Positions 3,234-53,270 are shown, counted from the first letter of the stretch. The stretch: DNA of 64,000 nt from Patescibacteria group bacterium (GCA_041650715.1 JBAZKQ010000001.1:326945-390944), one strand, 5' to 3'. Notes: a model not told the origin generated them from the sequence alone. Translations and numbers: made by a program.

Positions 3234-4412
3234 CTATTTGAGTTTTTTGCTCTTATCGCGCTTGCGGCCATAATTAGCAAAACGATGGGCTTCTTCGCGC
3301 AACTTAAGAAGAGTCGGTTTTATGTTGTTGGCCAGATCGCGAATTTCATTTTTGGTCTTCGGAGTGAAAACTAATTTATCGCCGCCGAATTTAGAAATGC
3401 CGACGAGCGGGATGTTAATATTATTCTCGGTGAAGACGCGCGATAAAAAACTAATCTGCGGCGAGCCGCCGTCAATCATGATAATGTCAGGCATGGTCCA
3501 TTCCGTATGTTTAAAACGGCGCAAGAGCACCTCGCTGAGCGCGCGTTCATCGTCTCCGCCCGGCGCGTCTTTGATTTTAAAAAGGCGATACTCGCGTTTA
3601 GCCGCTTCCCCGTTTTCGAAAACCACCATCGAGCCGTAGCTTTCTTTACCTTGGTGATGAGAAATATCATAGCCTTCCAGGCGGTTAACTTTTAATTCAT
3701 TGAGATCTTCGTCGCGAGTCAGCAAGGAAACGTCCTGAATATGTTTAAGAGCGTTTATTTTATCCGGATTGTCTCGCATCAGTTTGGCGGTAAGTCGTTT
3801 CTTTTCACCGGCCAAAAGCAAGGAAATATTATTAATATTTTTTTTATAGTCACGCGCCGAAATAGCGTCAATACAGCCGCCCGGGCAAAGTCCGATTTGA
3901 TAATCGAAACAAGCCCGCCCGCTATGGGGCGTGCAGTTGCCGTAAGGGAAAATGCGTCGAATCAAACGGAGAGCTCCCTGGAGAAGATAGAAAGACTGGT
4001 AAGGCCCAAAGACTTTTGCCTTTGAGGCTGGAAATTTCTTTAAATCAGTCGCGCGCACGATTAGCGGCTTGGCAAAATCAATTTTCGGAATAACGACATA
4101 GATAAAGGAACGGTCATCACGGTCAACGATATTATACTTGGGCCAGAATTTTTTAATATTTTTCGCCTCAAGAATAATCGCTTCAAGTAGGGTGTCGCAG
4201 ACTTCATATTTTATATCAGAAGCGGCGTCCACCATCTCGGCAATGCGCGGCGAAATGTTTTTTTGGAAGTATTGGCTCAGGCGATTTTTTAAACTTGTGG
4301 CCCGGCCGACATAAAGAACCTTGCCTTTTTTATCCAACCAAAAATAAACTCCCGGCTTTTTCGGAATTGTTTTTAGTTTATTTTTTAATTGATTTTTTAG
4401 AGTTAAACTCAT
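3234..4412 (-). CDS. uvrC: excinuclease ABC subunit C, compact form (GIY-YIG + Cys-rich region + RNase H-like endonuclease domain only)
   Basis: GIY-YIG N-terminus (PGVYFWLDKKGKVLYVGRATSLKNRLSQYF). Four-Cys region (CTPHSGRACFDYQIGLCPGGC). C-terminal nuclease motifs (LEGYDISHHQG, IIMIDGG). 392 aa versus about 600 aa for the typical protein. Confidence 0.9.
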   Translation of the reverse strand: MSLTLKNQLKNKLKTIPKKPGVYFWLDKKGKVLYVGRATSLKNRLSQYFQKNISPRIAEMVDAASDIKYEVCDTLLEAIILEAKNIKKFWPKYNIVDRDDRSFIYVVIPKIDFAKPLIVRATDLKKFPASKAKVFGPYQSFYLLQGALRLIRRIFPYGNCTPHSGRACFDYQIGLCPGGCIDAISARDYKKNINNISLLLAGEKKRLTAKLMRDNPDKINALKHIQDVSLLTRDEDLNELKVNRLEGYDISHHQGKESYGSMVVFENGEAAKREYRLFKIKDAPGGDDERALSEVLLRRFKHTEWTMPDIIMIDGGSPQISFLSRVFTENNINIPLVGISKFGGDKLVFTPKTKNEIRDLANNIKPTLLKLREEAHRFANYGRKRDKSKKLK

Positions 4413-4707
4413 AAAGATATTTGCTTAGGTCAATTTTGTTGTCCTTAATAATAATACCTTCTTGGCGGAGAATGGCAATCTTGCGCTTGGGGCCGCTTGC
4501 AAAACCGCCGACTTCCCCGTTGGCGCGGATAACTCGGTGGCATGGGACAAGAGGCGCAAACGGATTTTTATTTAAGGTGTTACCGACGGCACGCGCTGCA
4601 CCAGGATTATTTAGAGCTCGGGCAATTTCTTTATACGTTGAAATTTTACCCTTGGGAATAAGGGCGCAATATTTATAGACGAGCTGTGGAAAACTTAAGT
4701 TATTCAT
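4378..4707 (-). CDS. ogt: methylated-DNA--protein-cysteine methyltransferase (MGMT/Ogt DNA-binding/catalytic domain only)
   Basis: 109 aa with the active-site motif PCHRVI and a helix-turn-helix region (ISTYKEIARALNNPGAARAVGNTL). Overlaps the uvrC start by 35 nt. Confidence 0.9.
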   Translation of the reverse strand: MNNLSFPQLVYKYCALIPKGKISTYKEIARALNNPGAARAVGNTLNKNPFAPLVPCHRVIRANGEVGGFASGPKRKIAILRQEGIIIKDNKIDLSKYLYEFNSKKSIKK

Positions 4708-47078: not shown

Positions 47079-47840
47079 ATGAAAAATTATATCAATTGGA
47101 AATCATTTTTTATTCTGTTGGGTTTAAGCCTCGTGAGCGTCATTTGTGTCTTTCCGTATATTATTTCTCTGCAGGGAGACGTCTTGAAGCAAATCGGCCA
47201 ACCGATAGAATTTATATTTTTGGCGCAGTTAATTCAGAGTTTAATCCTTTTTTCAATCGTTATTTTCCTCGGTTTGATTTTTACAAAAAAAATACATTTC
47301 CGGCTTCCACTGATTGAAGCTATACTCGAAAAAGGAGACTCAAAAAAAGTACTGAAGAATATTTTAGGAATATCAGTTACTCTCGGTGCTATAACCGCGA
47401 TAGTTATCTATGCCGTCGATACTTTATTTACAATCCAAGGTGCGGTGCTTAGTACTCATCAAAACTATGCCCCAATTTGGCAAAAACTTTTAGCGGCCAT
47501 ATACGGCGGGGCCACCGAAGAAATATTAATGCGCTTATTTTTAATGAGCTTTTTTATTTGGCTGAGCGTTAAATTATTCAAAAGACAGGAAGCGACACGG
47601 GCTGCGATTATTGTTTCCATTATCCTCGCCGCTGTTATATTCGGGCTCGGGCATTTACCGCTGACCGCTTCTTTAACGAATTTAACACCGCTTATAATCA
47701 TAAGAGCAGTTGTTCTAAATGGTATCGGCGGCATCGTCTTTGGCTGGCTATTCTGGAAAAAAGGACTTGAGTCGGCAATGATCGCCCACTTTACCGCTGA
47801 TATTTTTCTGCTCACGCTTTTACCCTTAGTGTTTAAGTAA
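47079..47840 (+). CDS. CPBP family intramembrane glutamic endopeptidase (CAAX protease/Abi)
   Basis: EExxxR motif (ATEEILMRLF), FGLGH and HFTADI motifs. Multi-TM. Confidence 0.88.
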   Translation: MKNYINWKSFFILLGLSLVSVICVFPYIISLQGDVLKQIGQPIEFIFLAQLIQSLILFSIVIFLGLIFTKKIHFRLPLIEAILEKGDSKKVLKNILGISVTLGAITAIVIYAVDTLFTIQGAVLSTHQNYAPIWQKLLAAIYGGATEEILMRLFLMSFFIWLSVKLFKRQEATRAAIIVSIILAAVIFGLGHLPLTASLTNLTPLIIIRAVVLNGIGGIVFGWLFWKKGLESAMIAHFTADIFLLTLLPLVFK

Positions 47841-47931: not shown

Positions 47932-48429
47932 CTATTTGATAATGCCAATATTATGCTTAATAATCTCTAAGGCAGCTTTATGTAGTCTTGGCGAAGAATG
48001 ACTGGCCGTCAGATTTTTTAGAACAAGCACTGACATTCCGCGATCAAATGCATCTCGGGCAAAAGTCAGCACACAGTTTTCCGTATCAAAACCGGCCAAC
48101 TCGACCTGATCTATTTTATTTTTCTTTAACAAACTGAACAATTTGTTATCAACAAAACTGCTATATGTAAATTTAGGAAATAGATGGTTTCCATTAATAA
48201 GTTCTTTAATTTCATCCGCCAAATCTGTCTGATTTTTATCCATAAAACCACTCCATTTTAAGCTGCGTATAAAATTACTTCCTTTGCGATTAAAGTATTG
48301 AGTAAAGATTAAAAGATCATAGTGATTATTAGTCTTTAAAATATACTTTCGAATTTTTATTACAATAGGCTTTGTTAATTTATTAATAAAGCCTTTTTGA
48401 ACATCAATGATTATAAGTGCTTTTTTCAT
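47932..48429 (-). CDS. isochorismatase-family cysteine hydrolase
   Basis: ALIIIDVQKGF and GFDTENCV catalytic contexts. Confidence 0.82.
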   Translation of the reverse strand: MKKALIIIDVQKGFINKLTKPIVIKIRKYILKTNNHYDLLIFTQYFNRKGSNFIRSLKWSGFMDKNQTDLADEIKELINGNHLFPKFTYSSFVDNKLFSLLKKNKIDQVELAGFDTENCVLTFARDAFDRGMSVLVLKNLTASHSSPRLHKAALEIIKHNIGIIK

Positions 48430-48442
48430 AAAATTACAGTTG

Positions 48443-49024
48443 CTAACTCGGTCTTTTTTTACTTTTTTTAAAATCTGATTTTAACTTCGAAAAAATAAAA
48501 GTATTTCTAAAATCCTTAAAGTATTCACTATAAGTATCTTCTCGATATTTCCCTTCAAGAGTATACCCAGATTTTTTGGCAACACCAGCGGATGGGATAT
48601 TTCTTTCGTCGCATTTTATCTGAATTCTATTCAAATTAAGATTTAAAAAGGATTCTTTTTCCAGAACACCAAGCGCCTCAGTCATATAACCATTTCTCGT
48701 AAATTTTTTGGATAACCAATAACCAATTTCGCCAGATTTATTTTTTTTATTAATATCAAATATACCTATATTGCCAATATATTCGTTATTTAAATAAATT
48801 CCGTAATCAGTTTTTTCACCCAGTTTAAATTTTTCATCAACGGTAAATAGATATTTTAAAGCATCCTCGACATTATTTTCGCTAGTTACCCAAGGAAACC
48901 AGGGTGATAAATGTTGACGATTTTCATCAACAACCCTAAATAGTGCCTTTGCCGTTAACAAAGTTGGCTTGAGTCTTCTGAGAATAATTCTTTTTCCCGG
49001 CAATGTCGATTTAGATTTAGGCAT
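48443..49024 (-). CDS. GNAT family N-acetyltransferase (RimJ/RimL-like)
   Basis: 193 aa. EIGYWLSKKFTRNGYMTEAL acetyl-CoA-binding region. Confidence 0.8.
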   Translation of the reverse strand: MPKSKSTLPGKRIILRRLKPTLLTAKALFRVVDENRQHLSPWFPWVTSENNVEDALKYLFTVDEKFKLGEKTDYGIYLNNEYIGNIGIFDINKKNKSGEIGYWLSKKFTRNGYMTEALGVLEKESFLNLNLNRIQIKCDERNIPSAGVAKKSGYTLEGKYREDTYSEYFKDFRNTFIFSKLKSDFKKSKKRPS

Positions 49025-49102
49025 ATTGAATGAATTTATCTAATTTATTCTAATAATGTTTATAGAACAAAAATAGCACGAAAAGTGCTATTTTGTAAAA
49101 TT

Positions 49103-49129
49103 GCTCCGGGATAGGGACTCAGTTGGAAC
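49103..49129 (-). repeat. tRNA-Gln 3'-end-like 27-nt motif, copy A
   Basis: gctccgggatagggactcagttggaac. 22/27 identical to copy C. The first 16 nt resemble the tRNA-Gln 3' end. Confidence 0.8.
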
Positions 49130-49181
49130 AGTCTTAATGATTATTTAGCTTTTTATCATAACCAACATCATTTTGAATATA

Positions 49182-49421
49182 TTAAGCCTGATATTTTCCT
49201 ACAATTGGATATTTATTAATAATATCCATTAAATGTATGCTATGAAAATCCTCCGATAAATCTTGACCCGCTTGGTGATTGATGTGAGAACCGTTAATAA
49301 AGGCAGTCGTCACATCATAAACCAAACCATCAACGGCGACATAGGCCGGCTGGCCATTTTGTCCGTCGTAAAGACTCAGAGTTTTCGCAGTAAATATTTT
49401 GTCATTTATTTTATTTTTCAT
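49182..49421 (-). CDS. cytochrome b5-like heme/steroid-binding domain protein
   Basis: 79 aa. LSLYDGQNGQPAYVAVDGLVYDVT...HQAGQDLSEDF. Confidence 0.7.
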   Translation of the reverse strand: MKNKINDKIFTAKTLSLYDGQNGQPAYVAVDGLVYDVTTAFINGSHINHQAGQDLSEDFHSIHLMDIINKYPIVGKYQA

Positions 49422-49526
49422 ATTTTTAATTTGTAATTACAAATTTAAAAATACCGCGAAATATGGTATTTTGTCTATTTATCTATATCGTAAATATATA
49501 GCGGTCTTGTCTATGTTTTACTAAAT

Positions 49527-49827
49527 TTACATTCCGAGCATAACATCATACTTCCCATATACTTCTTTTTTTAAATCGGCCACTTTTGGATTGTTCCAAT
49601 CATGCATCCATTCGGATGCGATTGTTTCCCAGGTGATCGGAATAACGCCGGCTTGCAGCATACGTTCAATACCATATTTATGGGCGTCAGGCGTGGCATC
49701 TCCAGCGGCATCCATGAGACCATAAATATCCATTCCCCTCTGGATAAATTGAGGTCAGTATTGTAGGCACCTTCAATATGGCCGCTGCCTTATAAGTCTA
49801 ATTTTGAATTTTTCATATGATTAATAA
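49527..49827 (-). pseudogene. remnant of an isochorismatase/YcaC-family hydrolase gene
   Basis: Only the C-terminal 68 aa are in frame (DAAGDA...ERMLQAGVIPITWETIASEWMHDW). Upstream are an 8-codon start (MKNSKLDL, then a stop) and an out-of-frame AAAILKVPTILTSIYPEGNG segment. Confidence 0.7.
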
Positions 49828-50226
49828 TTATTCCGTCGTTTTTCCGTCAAATTCCTCTTTATTCTTCTCGGCCTCTTCTTTAGTCGCACGAATAATGCCA
49901 TCCTTATGGTTCGCGGGCGAGTAAATGGTATAAAGTTTTAGACTTTCCGAATTTGAAGTATTGATAATATTATGTTGAGCACCAGACGGCACAATTATTG
50001 CCGAGCCATCGGTGACAGGGTATTCATTCCCATCAATAATGCACTTGCCCTGCCCTTTTTCAAAACGGAAAAACTGATCATTATTCTCATGCACTTCCAT
50101 TCCAATGTCCTCGTTTGGCAAAAGACTCATTAGAACAAGCTGGCTATGCTTAGCAGTATACAAAACTTTACGAAAATTAGTATTTTTTAAAGTTTCTTTT
50201 TCTATATTAGCGTTGAATCCTTTCAT
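49828..50226 (-). CDS. cupin domain protein
   Basis: 132 aa. GMEVHENNDQFFRFEKGQG ... VPSGAQHNIIN two-motif cupin signature. Confidence 0.85.
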   Translation of the reverse strand: MKGFNANIEKETLKNTNFRKVLYTAKHSQLVLMSLLPNEDIGMEVHENNDQFFRFEKGQGKCIIDGNEYPVTDGSAIIVPSGAQHNIINTSNSESLKLYTIYSPANHKDGIIRATKEEAEKNKEEFDGKTTE

Positions 50227-50246
50227 AAATTTTTAAATTAATTTAA

Positions 50247-50639
50247 TTATTTCACCAATTTCTTTATTTTGCTTTGTTTCGGGGTCACCTTTGATGTCGT
50301 AATCTTCTTGGCTTTTGCGGCGCGGTCAATAGCGCGCCAGTGGGTTTTCAAATTCTGAGCGAGCGCTTTTATTTCCTGAGGGGTGGATTTCATTTCCTTT
50401 TCATATTTCGCGGCCACAGAATCAATGATGTCATTATAAATAGGTTCACTGACTTCTCTCGCTTGCTCAATTTTTTCAATCACATCCCCCTTCATTTTAA
50501 TAGCCCAAGATTTAGCGTCTTCAAGGTTTTTCTTCTTCTTGGGACCGAGAAAAAAATAGGCTGCGGCTAAACCAGCAACACTGGCGCCCAAGATTAATAG
50601 TTTCATCGCGCCGGAGCCATTTTTTGTTGTTTCCTTCAT
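50247..50639 (-). CDS. YtxH-like membrane-anchored protein
   Basis: N-terminal LILGASVAGLAAAYFFLGPKKKKN, then a helical charged region. Confidence 0.5.
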   Translation of the reverse strand: MKETTKNGSGAMKLLILGASVAGLAAAYFFLGPKKKKNLEDAKSWAIKMKGDVIEKIEQAREVSEPIYNDIIDSVAAKYEKEMKSTPQEIKALAQNLKTHWRAIDRAAKAKKITTSKVTPKQSKIKKLVK

Positions 50640-50695
50640 AAATTTAGGTTTAGTTTATTAAATATCTCTTTAATAATACGCAGGGAGAAGCTTTT

Positions 50696-51058
50696 TTAGT
50701 TTTTGGGAACAAATTTCATCGAAAGTGAATTTACACAATGACGAACATCTTTGTCGGTAAGGTGTTCTCCGGTAAATATATGTCCCAAATGGCCGCCACA
50801 TTTAGCGCAAGTAATTTCTGTGCGCCGGCCATCCGCATCCCAGCCCCTATGAACCGCTCCGATTATTTCCTGGTCAAAACTGGGCCAGCCACAATCTGAC
50901 TTGAGCTTGTCTTGAGACTTATAGAGCGGTTCTCCACATTGTCGACAAACATAAACACCCGACTTCATAGTATTCACGTATTCGCCGCTAAATGGGGCTT
51001 CTGTTCCCTTTTCTATTATTATTCTTTTTTCTTCGTCACTCAGCTTATTGAAATTCAT
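50696..51058 (-). CDS. msrB: peptide-methionine (R)-S-oxide reductase
   Basis: Two CxxC zinc motifs (CRQCGEPL, CAKCGGHLGH) and the catalytic RHCVNS. Confidence 0.95.
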   Translation of the reverse strand: MNFNKLSDEEKRIIIEKGTEAPFSGEYVNTMKSGVYVCRQCGEPLYKSQDKLKSDCGWPSFDQEIIGAVHRGWDADGRRTEITCAKCGGHLGHIFTGEHLTDKDVRHCVNSLSMKFVPKN

Positions 51059-51063
51059 ATAAA

Positions 51064-51330
51064 TTAGTTATTCATGTAATCTTTACGGTGGACACAGCCG
51101 GACCAACAACATGGTCGCCGCATACCCTCTTTTAATTCCGAAACAACTCTCTTAACATGCTCTTGGCGCGTCTTACTTTTCTTAACAGAAATAGTCCAGC
51201 AAATCCACTCATTGCGGGCGAGTTCTGTAATATCTTCCCATGCCAATAAAGCCCGGCGATCAGATAGTAAGGCTATTCGCAAGTCTTTCGGTAAATTATG
51301 CGCTACACCGCCGGAAATTTTATTTGTCAT
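51064..51330 (-). CDS. YdeI/OmpD-associated family protein
   Basis: 88 aa. LLAWEDITELARNEWICWTISVKKSKTRQEHVKR pattern. Confidence 0.7.
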   Translation of the reverse strand: MTNKISGGVAHNLPKDLRIALLSDRRALLAWEDITELARNEWICWTISVKKSKTRQEHVKRVVSELKEGMRRPCCWSGCVHRKDYMNN

Positions 51331-51455
51331 ATCTTATTTATTTTTGAGCCGGCCACATTGTTCAGATTCCGGTACCGCAGAAAGCTTTTCCCGGTAGTAA
51401 CCGATCTCTTTTCGTTCTGTCCATATATAGTACGAAATACATCGAATTTTTATTA

Positions 51456-51482
51456 GCTCAAAGTTTGGGATATGGTTGGAAC
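51456..51482 (-). repeat. tRNA-Gln 3'-end-like 27-nt motif, copy B
   Basis: gctcaaagtttgggatatggttggaac. 25/27 identical to copy D. Confidence 0.8.
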
Positions 51483-51539
51483 CACATTAAAAAATAAGCC
51501 GGTTTATTTATTTCTGAATTTTGATATAATATCCATAAT

Positions 51540-51773
51540 ATGAAATTAACTAATGACAGCTACATAATATCAATCGGCACAAAAAACTTTACCGAAAAAT
51601 ACCTTCGTGATAAGGATGGTTGGGTTAAAATTTCTGCAAAAGGTAATAAATTTAGAATGACCGCAGAACAACTTCTTAACCATCTATTGCCAGCCGTGGC
51701 TAATGTAAAACCGGGTTTGATTTGGGGGATTGAGTATAAGCCCAAGAAAGAATTAGGTAATTCAAAAAAGTAA
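51540..51773 (+). CDS. hypothetical protein
   Basis: 77-aa ORF preceded by the extended -10 TGaTATAAT (51522-51530) and followed by a hairpin terminator (51817-51845). Confidence 0.45.
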   Translation: MKLTNDSYIISIGTKNFTEKYLRDKDGWVKISAKGNKFRMTAEQLLNHLLPAVANVKPGLIWGIEYKPKKELGNSKK

Positions 51774-51850
51774 ATCCGTTTACTTTAAATAAGACTAAAA
51801 CATTTTTTTGTAAACAAAAACACCTGTACTTACAGGTGTTTTTGAGAGAT

Positions 51851-51877
51851 GCTCGGGAATAGGGATATAGTTGGAAC
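51851..51877 (-). repeat. tRNA-Gln 3'-end-like 27-nt motif, copy C
   Basis: gctcgggaatagggatatagttggaac. The first 16 nt match the tRNA-Gln 3' end at 15/16 positions. Confidence 0.8.
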
Positions 51878-51885
51878 GATTTTGT

Positions 51886-52398
51886 CTATAAATTAATAGT
51901 AAATACACTCTCGCCATTGCCAGTTGCAAATTGGTCTTTAAAATATTTGCCTTCATCGTATGTTTTACAGAATTCTTTGTATTTATCAAATAGTTCTGGA
52001 AAAACTGATAAATCATAGCCCTGTTCCTGAAGTTTCTTCCAAGAAGCTAAGGCGCCGCCCTGGACTACCTCATCACTACAAATTCCATTTAATTCTTTTC
52101 GTTTAGCTATATCTATTAGATGTTTATATAAATCTAGTGATAAATCTTTTCTGTTATAATTATCTCCTATACCGGCAAACCTAACTTTTATAAATTTATT
52201 ATCATTTTTTGAAATATAATCAAAAGAGATACTACCAATAAAATCTTGATTTTCCTTATTTAAGAGTCTAATCTTTTTCTCACCAAATTCATTATCATTA
52301 TCTTCTTCATTTGATAGAATAGTTTCAATTTTTTGTTCCGAGTCTTCTTGTTTCCCCCTAAAAACTGGATTAAATTGTTTTTCAATATTAATTTTCAT
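51886..52398 (-). CDS. hypothetical protein (weak GNAT-like C-terminal pattern)
   Basis: 170-aa ORF filling the module between motif copies D and C. Confidence 0.5.
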   Translation of the reverse strand: MKINIEKQFNPVFRGKQEDSEQKIETILSNEEDNDNEFGEKKIRLLNKENQDFIGSISFDYISKNDNKFIKVRFAGIGDNYNRKDLSLDLYKHLIDIAKRKELNGICSDEVVQGGALASWKKLQEQGYDLSVFPELFDKYKEFCKTYDEGKYFKDQFATGNGESVFTINL

Positions 52399-52468
52399 AA
52401 ATTAAATTTTTATTATCTTGTACATACACATAACAAAAATACCACAAAAGTGGTATTCTTGTCTATTT

Positions 52469-52495
52469 GCTCGGAGTTTGGGATATGGTTGGAAC
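52469..52495 (-). repeat. tRNA-Gln 3'-end-like 27-nt motif, copy D
   Basis: gctcggagtttgggatatggttggaac. Confidence 0.8.
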
Positions 52496-52500
52496 AATTA

Positions 52501-52529
52501 TTGACAACTATGGAATATCGTGATAATAT
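52501..52529 (+). promoter_or_regulatory. consensus sigma70-type promoter
   Basis: TTGACA 52501-52506, 17-nt spacer, TAATAT 52524-52529, upstream of the 52573 ORF. Confidence 0.6.
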
Positions 52530-52572
52530 TTTTAATTAATAATGCATTGTTGAACTTTAAAAATTATTAGAC

Positions 52573-52938
52573 ATGAAAGACACAGAAATTCAAGGAACAA
52601 GTATTTGTGTAATTGAAAAATGGATTGCAGTAATAGAGGGATACATAGAATCGAAAAATCTGTATGTAAAAGTGGGATCCCCCGATTTAGGAGTTTTAGC
52701 TTGCAGTAATTTTACAGAAGAAAAAGATAATAAAAAACTTCTTTTTCTTCAGAAAGATGTTGTTTTTCTACTTATAATGCTAAGCAAAGTTTTCCCGGAT
52801 ATTTTTCAGAAATTTAACAACACAGGGAGTTGCCCCTTTTTTGTGATTAAAAGAGAGCTTCGGATGAAAAATGAATGTTCTAAAAGCATTGCCAAGAAAG
52901 TCTCCATAGCGAAAGCGATAATCGCTTTGAGTAAGTAA
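52573..52938 (+). CDS. hypothetical protein
   Basis: 121-aa ORF with a consensus promoter upstream and a hairpin (52942-52968) downstream. Confidence 0.5.
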   Translation: MKDTEIQGTSICVIEKWIAVIEGYIESKNLYVKVGSPDLGVLACSNFTEEKDNKKLLFLQKDVVFLLIMLSKVFPDIFQKFNNTGSCPFFVIKRELRMKNECSKSIAKKVSIAKAIIALSK

Positions 52939-52972
52939 ACAAAGGGCTTGAGAAATCGAGCCCTTTTTATTA

Positions 52973-52989
52973 GCTCGGGGATAGGGATT
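52973..52989 (-). repeat. 17-bp perfect direct repeat of the tRNA-Gln 3' end (copy E)
   Basis: gctcggggatagggatt is identical to 53189-53205. That stretch covers the discriminator, the acceptor 3' strand, the T-stem 3' strand and the start of the T-loop. Confidence 0.9.
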
Positions 52990-53150
52990 TCCGCCTCAGC
53001 GAATTCGCCGTCGCTCATTCGCTTCGTTGTCGCGGTCAGAACTAAAGCTCCCCCGGAGCTTTAGCTACGCTCCCCTTTTCGCCGCTTTTGCTAAAGCGGC
53101 TCAAGACTCGCTTCTGCCCTGTTCGAATCCGCGCCTCTGCGAGGCGTATA
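52990..53150. other. GC-rich structured insert between the 17-bp repeats
   Basis: I counted 58 G+C in 53041-53140. Perfect hairpins at 53042-53064 (10 bp), 53081-53100 (8 bp) and 53132-53146 (6 bp). No ORF. Confidence 0.6.
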
Positions 53151-53185
53151 GCAAAAAAGAGAAGATATTATCTTCTCTTTTTTGC
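53151..53185. terminator. terminator hairpin immediately 3' of tRNA-Gln
   Basis: gcaaaaaagagaagata / tatcttctcttttttgc, a long symmetric stem. Confidence 0.7.
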
Positions 53186-53189
53186 TATG

Positions 53190-53260
53190 CTCGGGGATAG
53201 GGATTCGAACCCCAATAGCCAGGACCAGAACCTGGAGTCCTACCGTTAGACGATCCCCGA
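53190..53260 (-). tRNA. tRNA-Gln (anticodon CUG)
   Basis: Hand-folded cloverleaf. Acceptor TCGGGGA/TCCCCGA, D arm GTCT-AACGGTA-GGAC, anticodon arm CCAGG-TTCTGGT-CCTGG, T arm TGGGG-TTCGAAT-CCCTA. U1-A72 and discriminator G73 as in bacterial tRNA-Gln. CCA is not encoded. Confidence 0.9.
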
Positions 53261-53270
53261 ATAATGTCTT

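Follow-up and report, generated by a model that had tools for sequence, protein, structure and literature searches.

tRNA-seeded islands reportedly grow by repeated integration, as in Williams's "Traffic at the tmRNA gene" of 2003. Among the tycheposons of Prochlorococcus, the hallmarks are a tyrosine recombinase, or rarely a large serine recombinase (LSR), along with a replication module of the primase/helicase type (10.1101/2020.12.28.424599). For serine integrases, the zinc-ribbon-domain motif is placed at bp 16-24 of the half-site in the attachment site of the element (attP), and 5 bp nearer the centre (bp 11-19) in that of the host (attB) (Rutherford et al. 2013, PMC3783163). Here, we analyze a 64-kb stretch of DNA (hereafter, the window; JBAZKQ010000001.1:326945-390944) out of a 758-kb metagenomic contig from a Patescibacteria group bacterium, whose LysRS has its relatives among Falkowbacteria-like Patescibacteria. 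In the window, short repeats resembling the 3' end of a tRNA-Gln gene divide the DNA downstream of that gene into small modules. The segment from an Rce1-like gene (which ends at 47840) to tRNA-Gln (53189) is probably an integration hotspot that was built by successive insertions of elements carrying an LSR and a replication initiator (Rep), and that has since decayed. An earlier note on this sequence had proposed a decayed integration hotspot at tRNA-Gln, a proposal that is supported by repeats at module boundaries, hypervariable content, and a motif tied to tRNA-Gln.

A hypervariable segment divided by tRNA-like repeats

Loci were collected around LysRS, 80 from species genomes and 80 from metagenomes. 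In 35 relatives, tRNA-Gln lies downstream of LysRS as it does in the window, giving 36 loci with the window included, although these counts are not fully independent because some organisms were assembled twice (e.g., L028/L101 and L042/L109). Upstream of tRNA-Gln, the relatives are syntenic, with Wzy_C, GreA, LysRS, and Pyr_excise common to the loci. Downstream, the open reading frames (ORFs) are nearly all singletons among the 36 loci. The closest relative with downstream data (L084; 83% LysRS identity) has no homology to the window between the tRNA with its adjoining structured unit and the Rce1-like gene ~5.5 kb away, which sets the variable segment of the window at ~47.9-53.2 kb. When relatives are compared, as the earlier note had suggested, content differs completely between them and several breakpoints fall at the repeats or at GAGC. 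Many of these sequences also stop at the site. Six of the 35 contigs from relatives end 1-51 nt past tRNA-Gln and 9 of 35 within 232 nt, which is how assemblers behave at a site that differs among co-existing genomes. In many samples, assemblies end no more than a few dozen nucleotides from the tRNA beside the elements (L002, L007, L009, L012, L042, L044, L083, L089, and L092, and likewise L197-L202 and L206-L209); these breaks point to populations with mixed occupied and empty sites or with different occupants.

The tRNA-Gln(CTG) gene of the window is on the minus strand (53189/53190-53260; called by ARAGORN, with an Rfam tRNA score of 53.9 bits), and its sequence from T-loop to 3' end, GGTTCGAATCCCTATCCCCGAGC, would be the left arm of attB. 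The pattern GCTCN5TNGGGAN4GTTGGAAC has exactly four plus-strand matches in the 64 kb, at 49103, 51456, 51851, and 52469 (copies A, B, C, and D), compared with 0.01 expected in the shuffled window, and none of 100 shuffles reached four. Copies A-D and a further copy, E, all lie downstream of tRNA-Gln in the orientation of the tRNA. As previously claimed, copy E (52973-52989) matches the tRNA-Gln 3' end at 17/17 positions and copy C matches the tRNA at 15/16. Hairpins had been noted after most copies; here, every copy is followed in the tRNA sense by one, 5-12 nt on and with a T run. The identity among copies A-D had been given as 22-25/27 and was computed here as 18-25/27 (A-B 18, A-D 19, B-C 20). 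The linker and hairpin after the copies form a repeat family of their own (D3), 34 nt long, with members at 52435-52468, 49069-49102, and 49447-49480. The last of these lacks the 27-nt motif and is a sixth, degenerate junction that the earlier note missed. The modules, including their sizes, ORFs, and promoter, are as that note described them, except that the supposedly empty module between the tRNA and copy E holds a conserved structured element.

A motif profile built from the repeat copies was run on both strands of the window and all loci (~2 Mb). It yielded 16 matches at E < 0.05, all in the tRNA sense and 335-5513 nt downstream of tRNA-Gln, and none elsewhere in the window or in the DNA of relatives. 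The tie of the motif to tRNA-Gln that had been proposed is borne out across this DNA, and the same matches rule out a dispersed repeat of the REP/MITE type there. When viral contigs were searched with the motif, there were 0 matches. Degenerate tRNAs or pieces of tmRNA were also considered for the repeats and rejected, since there is no partner strand and both ARAGORN and Rfam were negative.

Integrase elements beside the tRNA in relatives

The lack of a recombinase that had been remarked upon is true of the window, where tblastn with LSR and Rep found none and no called gene had a recombinase Pfam match, but not of the relatives, where an LSR and a rolling-circle Rep adjoin the tRNA. Specifically, a protein of ~510-540 aa is encoded directly after tRNA-Gln on the opposite strand in L006, L008, L021, L034, and L085. 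Its Resolvase, Recombinase, and zinc-ribbon domains are those of an LSR, fragments of which occur in L083, L089, L093, and L142, and after it comes a Rep of the REP_ORF2-G2P/RepSA type. PHROGs labels the LSR as an integrase and the Rep as a rolling-circle initiator. When the 99 downstream ORFs of 140 aa or longer were surveyed, the sole recurrent families of mobile elements were Resolvase/Recombinase/Zn_ribbon_recom (5) and REP_ORF2-G2P (4). More than 1800 proteins are related to the LSR, and all but one of the source names seen belong to Patescibacteria lineages; a search of viral contigs returned one distant match. An LSR stands next to one element end in L006, L008, L021, L034, L085, L197, L200, and L203-L206, a position that no LSR holds in the window. 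On the tRNA side, contigs that carry the LSR (all of those for two LSR variants) stop within ~125 nt past the tRNA 3' end.

Five elements are intact, with both ends seen at tRNA-Gln (L021, L197, and L205) or at tRNA-Ser (L206 and L204). They measure 4.7-8.1 kb, start directly after the tRNA, and end in the 27-nt repeat, which is followed by a terminator. Immediately past the tRNA 3' end, a long hairpin, AAAAATCGC...GCGATTTTT, is succeeded by GCGTTCCAAAGTA and by the 3' end of the integrase gene in antisense. Because the same hairpin sequence is found behind four different tRNAs, namely Gln(CTG) in L008, L021, L203, and L205, Gln(TTG) in L197, Ser(GCT) in L200 and L204, and Ser(CGA) in L206, it must be element DNA, that is, the P' arm, and the left junction therefore lies at the very 3' end of the tRNA. 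A first model had placed the LSR crossover at a GTTCSAA block ~65-125 nt downstream of the tRNA, on the basis of homology between L034 and L011 up to GGTTCGAAAA. This model was dropped because the same "flank" directly follows tRNA-Gln(CTG), Gln(TTG), Ser(GCT), and Ser(CGA); since the flank is element DNA, L011, L079, and L010 carry remnants.

The P' hairpin encodes, antisense, the C-terminus of the LSR. The frame remains open through the hairpin and ~60 nt of the tRNA gene, up to a TAG stop complementary to tRNA positions 12-14, so that the last ~20 residues (LGDRDSNP..QDQNL.SYR) are encoded by host tRNA DNA. The antisense genes are all on the minus strand (L008 11953-13494, L021 11422-12972, L034 2870-4489, L006 6650-8260, and L085 7655-9232), and in L204 the frame passes through two tRNA-Ser genes. 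In all type II integrase genes, the 3' part of the coding sequence contains an 11-mer, CGTTCCAAAGT, twice, 101 nt apart (12109/12210 in L008, 11578/11679 in L021, and equivalents in L197, L200, and L206). The 11-mer resembles the GTTCCAA block of the P arm, and in L010 a deletion appears to have joined a GTTCCAA-like block of the integrase gene to the distal repeat.

Geometry of the putative attachment sites

In all five intact elements, the distal repeat mimics the cognate tRNA from T-loop to 3' end with exactly 5 nt added after the GTTCSAA block. At Gln(CTG) in L021, this part of the tRNA reads GTTCGAATCCCTGTCCCCGAGC and the repeat reads GTTCCAACATTGTCCCAAACTCCGAGC. The tRNA ends in CCTCCGAGC at Gln(TTG) in L197, where the repeat is GTTCCAACATTGTCCCAAGCTCCGAGC, and in CCCGGAGC at Gln(CTG) in L205, where it is GTTCCAACTTCGTCCCAAGCTCCGAGC. 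For tRNA-Ser, the corresponding pairs of tRNA and repeat are GTTCGAATCCCTTCTCCTCCGC and GTTCCAACTACGTCCCACGTCCTCCGC at Ser(CGA) in L206, and GTTCGAATCCCTCCCTCTCCGC and GTTCCAACATCATCCCACCCTCCCCGC at Ser(GCT) in L204. The tail of the Gln-type repeat is constant, CTCCGAGC, whereas the host acceptors vary (CCCCGAGC, CCTCCGAGC, and CCCGGAGC), which argues that the repeat is borne by the element and that exchange takes place in or after the shared GAGC. Homology ends at this shared core (GAGC with Gln targets, CGCAC with Ser targets).

Measured from the GTTCSAA block to GAGC/CCGC, the repeats span 27 nt and the cognate tRNA 22 nt, a matter of sequence geometry that holds for the Gln-CTG, Gln-TTG, Ser-CGA, and Ser-GCT targets. 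As the central dinucleotide, either the AG or the GC of GAGC fits this geometry, and with one of them as the centre, the repeat 8-mer GTTCCAAC falls at ~bp 16-24 and the tRNA GTTCGAAT at ~bp 11-19. Such agreement with the attP/attB rule suggests that what had been read as a 5-nt insertion is the expected signature of an attP arm, and the GTTCSAA block is presumably the zinc-ribbon-domain motif. A second integrase lineage (L006, L034, L085, L089, and L093), ~27-30% identical to the first, goes with the repeat subtype GTTCGGAAGTAATCCTTATACACGAGC (L010 and L109), which also has 5 extra nt.

The earlier note had viewed copies A-D as displaced tRNA 3' ends. In the intact elements, however, the sequence of the repeat follows the lineage of the element rather than the host tRNA. 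We infer that copies A-D are attP P arms brought in by elements and left as attR scars, that is, tRNA mimics with a 5-bp spacer. Recombination between attP and attB at these sites is predicted to be catalyzed by the LSR. Alternatively, the repeats could be the scars of phage-type tyrosine integrases, either displaced tRNA 3' ends or attP identity blocks, with a crossover inside the tRNA and a 5-nt difference that arose by decay. This would be the textbook pattern (Islander, PMC4383910; tycheposons). In keeping with it, copy E is a perfect match that tracks the host variant in 8 of 9 genomes, like a displaced end derived from the host, and an element with tyrosine integrase, Rep, and Zot is found in tandem at the tRNA-Ser hotspot of L204. 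Yet no tyrosine integrase recurs among the 99 ORFs downstream of tRNA-Gln in relatives, and the +5 spacing is exact in all Gln- and Ser-type repeats. Furthermore, the A-D-type tails follow the element lineage and not the host tRNA, and the repeats bound LSR elements. On balance, we consider an origin by tyrosine integrases unlikely.

Probable successive insertion, shuffling, and decay

The history that we favor begins with small (~5-8 kb) elements that would carry an LSR and a rolling-circle Rep and insert site-specifically after tRNA-Gln. The distal 27-nt repeat would be the left (P) arm of attP, mimicking the target tRNA from T-loop to discriminator, and, in line with what serine integrases require, its GTTCSAA block would be 5 bp more distant from the crossover than is the block of the tRNA (attB). 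The strands would be exchanged within the shared GAGC, where the tRNA terminates at its 3' end, in which case the tRNA stays intact and each insertion leaves one attR, composed of the P arm and the sequence that formerly followed the tRNA (the terminator). Later insertions at the tRNA would displace earlier ones outward, so that each unit would read GAGC, linker and terminator (the former right arm), cargo, and a P-arm repeat ending in GAGC. For the elements of the window, the LSR and Rep would have been lost by deletion, and what remains would be cargo set apart by the attR P arms of the four copies A-D, a single orphan junction, and, by the tRNA, a unit devoid of ORFs that is made up of a terminator and a structured element that ends in copy E (the E-type element).

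Relatives preserve several steps of this kind. At L204, an LSR element by the tRNA, with its repeat and terminator, is followed by a tyrosine-integrase/Rep/Zot element, and this tandem of two intact elements shows that insertion at an already occupied tRNA happens. L072 corresponds to L004 plus ~2.7 kb between the GAGC of the E-type element and the shared flank, and L010 to L011 plus 415 bp inserted likewise. L003 and L005 have a toxin-antitoxin-like gene pair in common, with homology that extends from the promoter across the repeat and ends at GAGCTA, and an HNH-like cassette comes just after a repeat and terminator in both L005 and L086. The cytochrome b5 gene of the window has nucleotide homology to a separate cassette in L088, and a homologue of the acetyltransferase that follows copy A in the window directly follows tRNA-Gln in L011. 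Stages of decay are also represented: L142 has an LSR stump and is still repeat-ended, L109 has an LSR remnant after the repeat, L006 is truncated, and L010, L011, and L079 have P' remnants only.

Some of these loci have features of their own. In L204 (9214-19680 in reverse-complement coordinates, tRNA-Ser(GCT)), element 1 contains the LSR, a Rep, and seven small ORFs, and element 2 contains the tyrosine integrase, HTH_17, Rep, and Zot, an inovirus-type morphogenesis protein. The two-gene cassette of L003 (12422-12887) and L005 (12437-12902) encodes 71 and 81 aa behind its own TTGACA promoter, has 81% nucleotide identity, and occupies a different position in each array; it is toxin-antitoxin-like by size and arrangement. 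The HNH-like cassette (L005 16681-17091 and L086 6693-7103; 136 aa, 84% between arrays) has the motif CPDCG...DHFIPLS...CKRCNSFK. Downstream of tRNA-Gln in L003 (13040-13080), L011 (13120-13160), and L079 (12130-12170), a T-loop-like remnant, (A)GTTCGAATCC, is followed by ~10 nt and a T run and may be the scar of an element targeting a different tRNA-like site.

Shuffled content could also mean that the modules, each with terminator, ORF, and 27-nt site, are active, non-autonomous cassettes that are excised and re-inserted in trans by a recombinase from another part of the genome or from a co-resident element, like those of integrons or pdif modules. Content is indeed shuffled between relatives with boundaries at the repeats, and modules are often one ORF directly followed by site and terminator. 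ORF-less E-type units are found twice per array in L072, L088, and L090, and assemblies break at the locus. But there is no recombinase in the 64 kb, and attR alone is no substrate for a serine integrase. Module order is identical in the sole other assembly of the same strain, which comes from another sample. In addition, ORF orientation is mixed, neither IntI nor attC-like palindromes are present, and some cargo homology ends in intergenic DNA rather than at the sites. We therefore judge ongoing mobilization to be quite unlikely. An integron-like attC was rejected on the grounds that the motif is not palindromic, the window has no IntI, and ORFs lie on both strands. Given that no recombinase is present and that attR is inert without attL, an integrase, and a directionality factor, the array of the window most likely records past events as a fossil rather than working as an active system of cassettes.

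Several points weigh against a history of successive LSR insertion. No LSR, Rep, or fragment of either was detected in the window by tblastn, so that the link to an integrase rests on the relatives. Canonical serine integrases do not target attL, which means that repeated insertion at an occupied tRNA would need the sequence after the tRNA to act as B'; reinsertion of this kind is seen in L204 without an explained mechanism. Whereas intact type II elements have the long P' hairpin at their proximal ends, those of the window modules are simple terminators. In copy E, both spacing and sequence are those of the tRNA itself, with a 140-nt insert at the place of the 5-bp spacer, and this copy misfits the P-arm rule. 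Our placement of the crossover dinucleotide follows from geometry and from where homology ends, the right arms (P' and B') have no dyad symmetry with the left arms, and neither a free circular attP nor a pair of attP and empty attB belonging to the same strain was recovered.

A structured element beside the tRNA

The E-type element of the window is ~160 nt long (52973-53132, minus strand) and matches its covariance model (CM) at 139.5 bits. Elements of this type occur in 9 of the 36 tRNA-Gln loci, including the closest relatives, and always in the region downstream of tRNA-Gln; the second copies noted above for three arrays are full or partial. The structure comprises a closing T-stem-like helix, GGAUU/AAUCC, with UUCGAAC right after its 5' strand, then a GC-rich body of five helices (~140 nt), and finally a tail that is the tRNA 3' end (copy E). 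Compensatory changes were found for 28 of 37 predicted pairs. Pairing was possible in 91% of cells, compared with 37-45% when partners were slid, and 0 of 500 shuffles matched this. G-U pairs outnumber A-C pairs, 14 to 3, which indicates that folding takes place on the tRNA-sense strand. The CM aligns the T-arm and 3' end of the tRNA itself as the model with its body deleted, so the E-type element can be described as a T-arm and acceptor strand whose T-loop harbors a domain of 140 nt. In 8 of 9 genomes, which span three T-stem variants, its tail varies together with the resident tRNA. The E-type element lies too close to the tRNA terminator for a promoter to fit between them, and hence transcription, if any, would be by read-through.

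Searches for relatives of the element in other collections gave little. With Rfam, nothing overlaps the E-type element in the window, and in four other genomes there were two chance-level partial overlaps (MIR9408, 30 bits against a gathering threshold of 90, and RsaF, 25.6 against 60). The E-type pattern had 28 matches in viral contigs, 0 of which were confirmed by the CM, and no match in a phage collection. Known classes were considered and rejected as well. A group I tRNA intron would have an upstream tRNA body, of which there is none, and those described in Patescibacteria lie in the anticodon loop (PMC13011429). For a rolling-circle single-strand origin, the CM finds none in the LSR elements of L008, L021, L034, and L085, and the E-type element folds on the strand opposite to Rep and LSR. 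A right-end guide RNA of the TnpB/IS605 type is without a TnpB, and such a guide would target an essential tRNA. In L072, another structured and GC-rich body (4340-4507), without sequence relationship to that of the E-type, stands before a tail identical to that of tRNA-Gln. The 5' strand of this body, CCGAGGAUAGCGGGG, and the tail form base pairs as in an acceptor/T minihelix (fold z = -5.9).

Candidate identities for the E-type element are an RNA gene derived from a tRNA, a second attB that has been disabled, and a non-autonomous unit. We give little credence to the idea that it is not a scar but a functional RNA of a new class, which would have arisen from the upper half of tRNA-Gln and would guide or regulate the traffic of serine integrases at the hotspot. 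If this were true, the RNA could occupy or mask a second site resembling attB or influence where integration takes place, or it could base-pair with the mRNA of the integrase, which is antisense to tRNA-Gln at its 3' end. A related idea concerns all of the repeats, which might work at the RNA level as tRNA-like 3' tags before terminators, directing the processing or stabilizing the 3' ends of upstream transcripts. Each copy does lie between a gene end and a terminator in a single orientation, and the E-type element is clearly folded as a single strand on that strand. However, copies A-D have no partner strand for a T-arm or acceptor stem, and several neighboring ORFs are on the opposite strand. 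The same repeat is the distal end of integrase-bearing elements, and it occurs at one locus per genome. Such an RNA-level role is, in our view, very improbable.

Content of the window array

Moving outward from the tRNA, the first feature is a perfect hairpin of 20+20 nt with flanking A and T runs (inverted repeat I3; 53148-53188), which is a bidirectional terminator and occupies the position of the attL right arm. Beyond the E-type element, a terminator hairpin (52942-52968) follows copy E in the tRNA sense and also ends a 121-aa cargo ORF on the plus strand (52573-52938), which has its own promoter, TTGACA-17-TAATAT, at 52501-52529. Copy D (GTTCCAACCATATCCCAAACTCCGAGC in the tRNA sense; 52469-52495, minus strand; profile E = 7.6e-5) is of the CCCAAAC type, agrees at 24/27 positions with the repeat that ends the intact LSR element of L021, and is followed by a D3 linker and terminator hairpin (52435-52468). 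Next come a 170-aa cargo ORF on the minus strand (51886-52398) and copy C (GTTCCAACTATATCCCTATTCCCGAGC; 51851-51877, minus strand), which is of the CCCTAT type, was found by both pattern and profile, and has a tail that matches the host tRNA at 14/15. The terminator hairpin after copy C (51816-51843) precedes a 77-aa ORF on the plus strand (51540-51773). These three small cargo ORFs had no family match in Pfam or PHROG.

Copy B (GTTCCAACCATATCCCAAACTTTGAGC; 51456-51482, minus strand; pattern and profile) is again of the CCCAAAC type and agrees with copy D at 25/27. It is followed on the minus strand by a composite cargo (49182-51330; annotated with Pfam) that comprises OmdA/YdeI, MsrB (SelR), a protein of 130 aa, a cupin, a fragment of an isochorismatase, and a cytochrome b5-like protein. 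The orphan D3 junction (linker and hairpin; 49447-49480) lies between the last two. The most distal repeat, copy A (GTTCCAACTGAGTCCCTATCCCGGAGC; 49103-49129, minus strand; pattern and profile), is followed by its D3 linker and terminator (49069-49102). An acetyltransferase and an isochorismatase (47932-49024, minus strand; Pfam and relatives) are still within the variable segment, and the Rce1-like gene (47079-47840), common to L084, starts the conserved far flank. The isochorismatase fragment in the array is C-terminal, 68 aa long (49527-49733), and ~1.1 kb from the intact 165-aa gene (47932-48429), which is just outside copy A. Copies B and D belong to the CCCAAAC subtype found at the ends of intact elements, and the tails of copies A and C have one mismatch to the host tRNA, which suggests that at least two element lineages contributed to the window.

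Comparison with known systems

As in the model for the A118 integrase of a Listeria phage (PMC3783163), a block of 7-8 bp (here GTTCSAA) lies 5 bp further out in the element site, half-sites are ~25 versus 20 bp, and the integrase has Resolvase, Recombinase, and zinc-ribbon domains. Unlike in that model, the target here would be the T-arm and acceptor 3' strand of a tRNA, with the crossover at the discriminator so that the tRNA survives, and the P arm overtly imitates the B arm along its full length and differs between Gln and Ser targets. In addition, the ORF of the integrase runs antisense through P' into the tRNA. To our knowledge, characterized serine integrases target protein-coding genes.

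The locus shares with tycheposons (Prochlorococcus; Hackl et al., 10.1101/2020.12.28.424599) and Islander islands (PMC4383910) a complete tRNA at one end, repeats that resemble part of a tRNA and are all oriented alike across a hypervariable island of a streamlined genome, newer elements that push older ones outward, and degenerate remnants without an integrase. It differs from these systems in having elements of 5-8 kb and repeats that would be attP-derived mimics with a 5-bp spacer instead of identity blocks. It further differs in its LSR and rolling-circle Rep, which take the place of a tyrosine recombinase with primase/helicase (no primase or helicase module was seen in the elements), and in its host, a Patescibacteria genome of ~0.76 Mb. 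Inovirus-like prophages and integrative plasmids of the pSAM2 type resemble the elements in their REP_ORF2-G2P/RepSA Rep, their size of 5-8 kb, and their many small ORFs. The neighboring element of L204 also carries Zot. The LSR elements at tRNA-Gln yielded no Zot and no coat-like protein, and no such element is present in the window. Finally, integron cassette arrays likewise have small, mostly single-ORF modules that are each followed by a recombination site, with content shuffled between relatives. In contrast to integrons, this locus has no IntI, attI, or attC hairpin, its ORF orientation is mixed, and its sites are tRNA-derived and linked to a serine recombinase.

Our findings illustrate how a genome of ~0.76 Mb keeps one hypervariable locus for accessory genes, with tRNA-Gln as the landing pad. 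They also point to a natural family of serine integrases (the >1800 relatives) with readable pairs of attP and attB, on which the model of the zinc-ribbon shift can be tested, and whose tRNA-mimic attP arms, with the 5-bp shift that structural work predicts, might be used to predict or re-target such integrases. The unclassified, conserved structured element by the tRNA is a separate lead for RNA biology. Set against described systems, islands that are seeded by a tRNA and contain repeats resembling part of it along with decayed elements are already known. What differs here is the machinery of serine integrase and Rep, the tRNA-mimic attP arms that track their target with a 5-bp shift, and the host lineage, and it is the E-type element that could prove to be new in kind.

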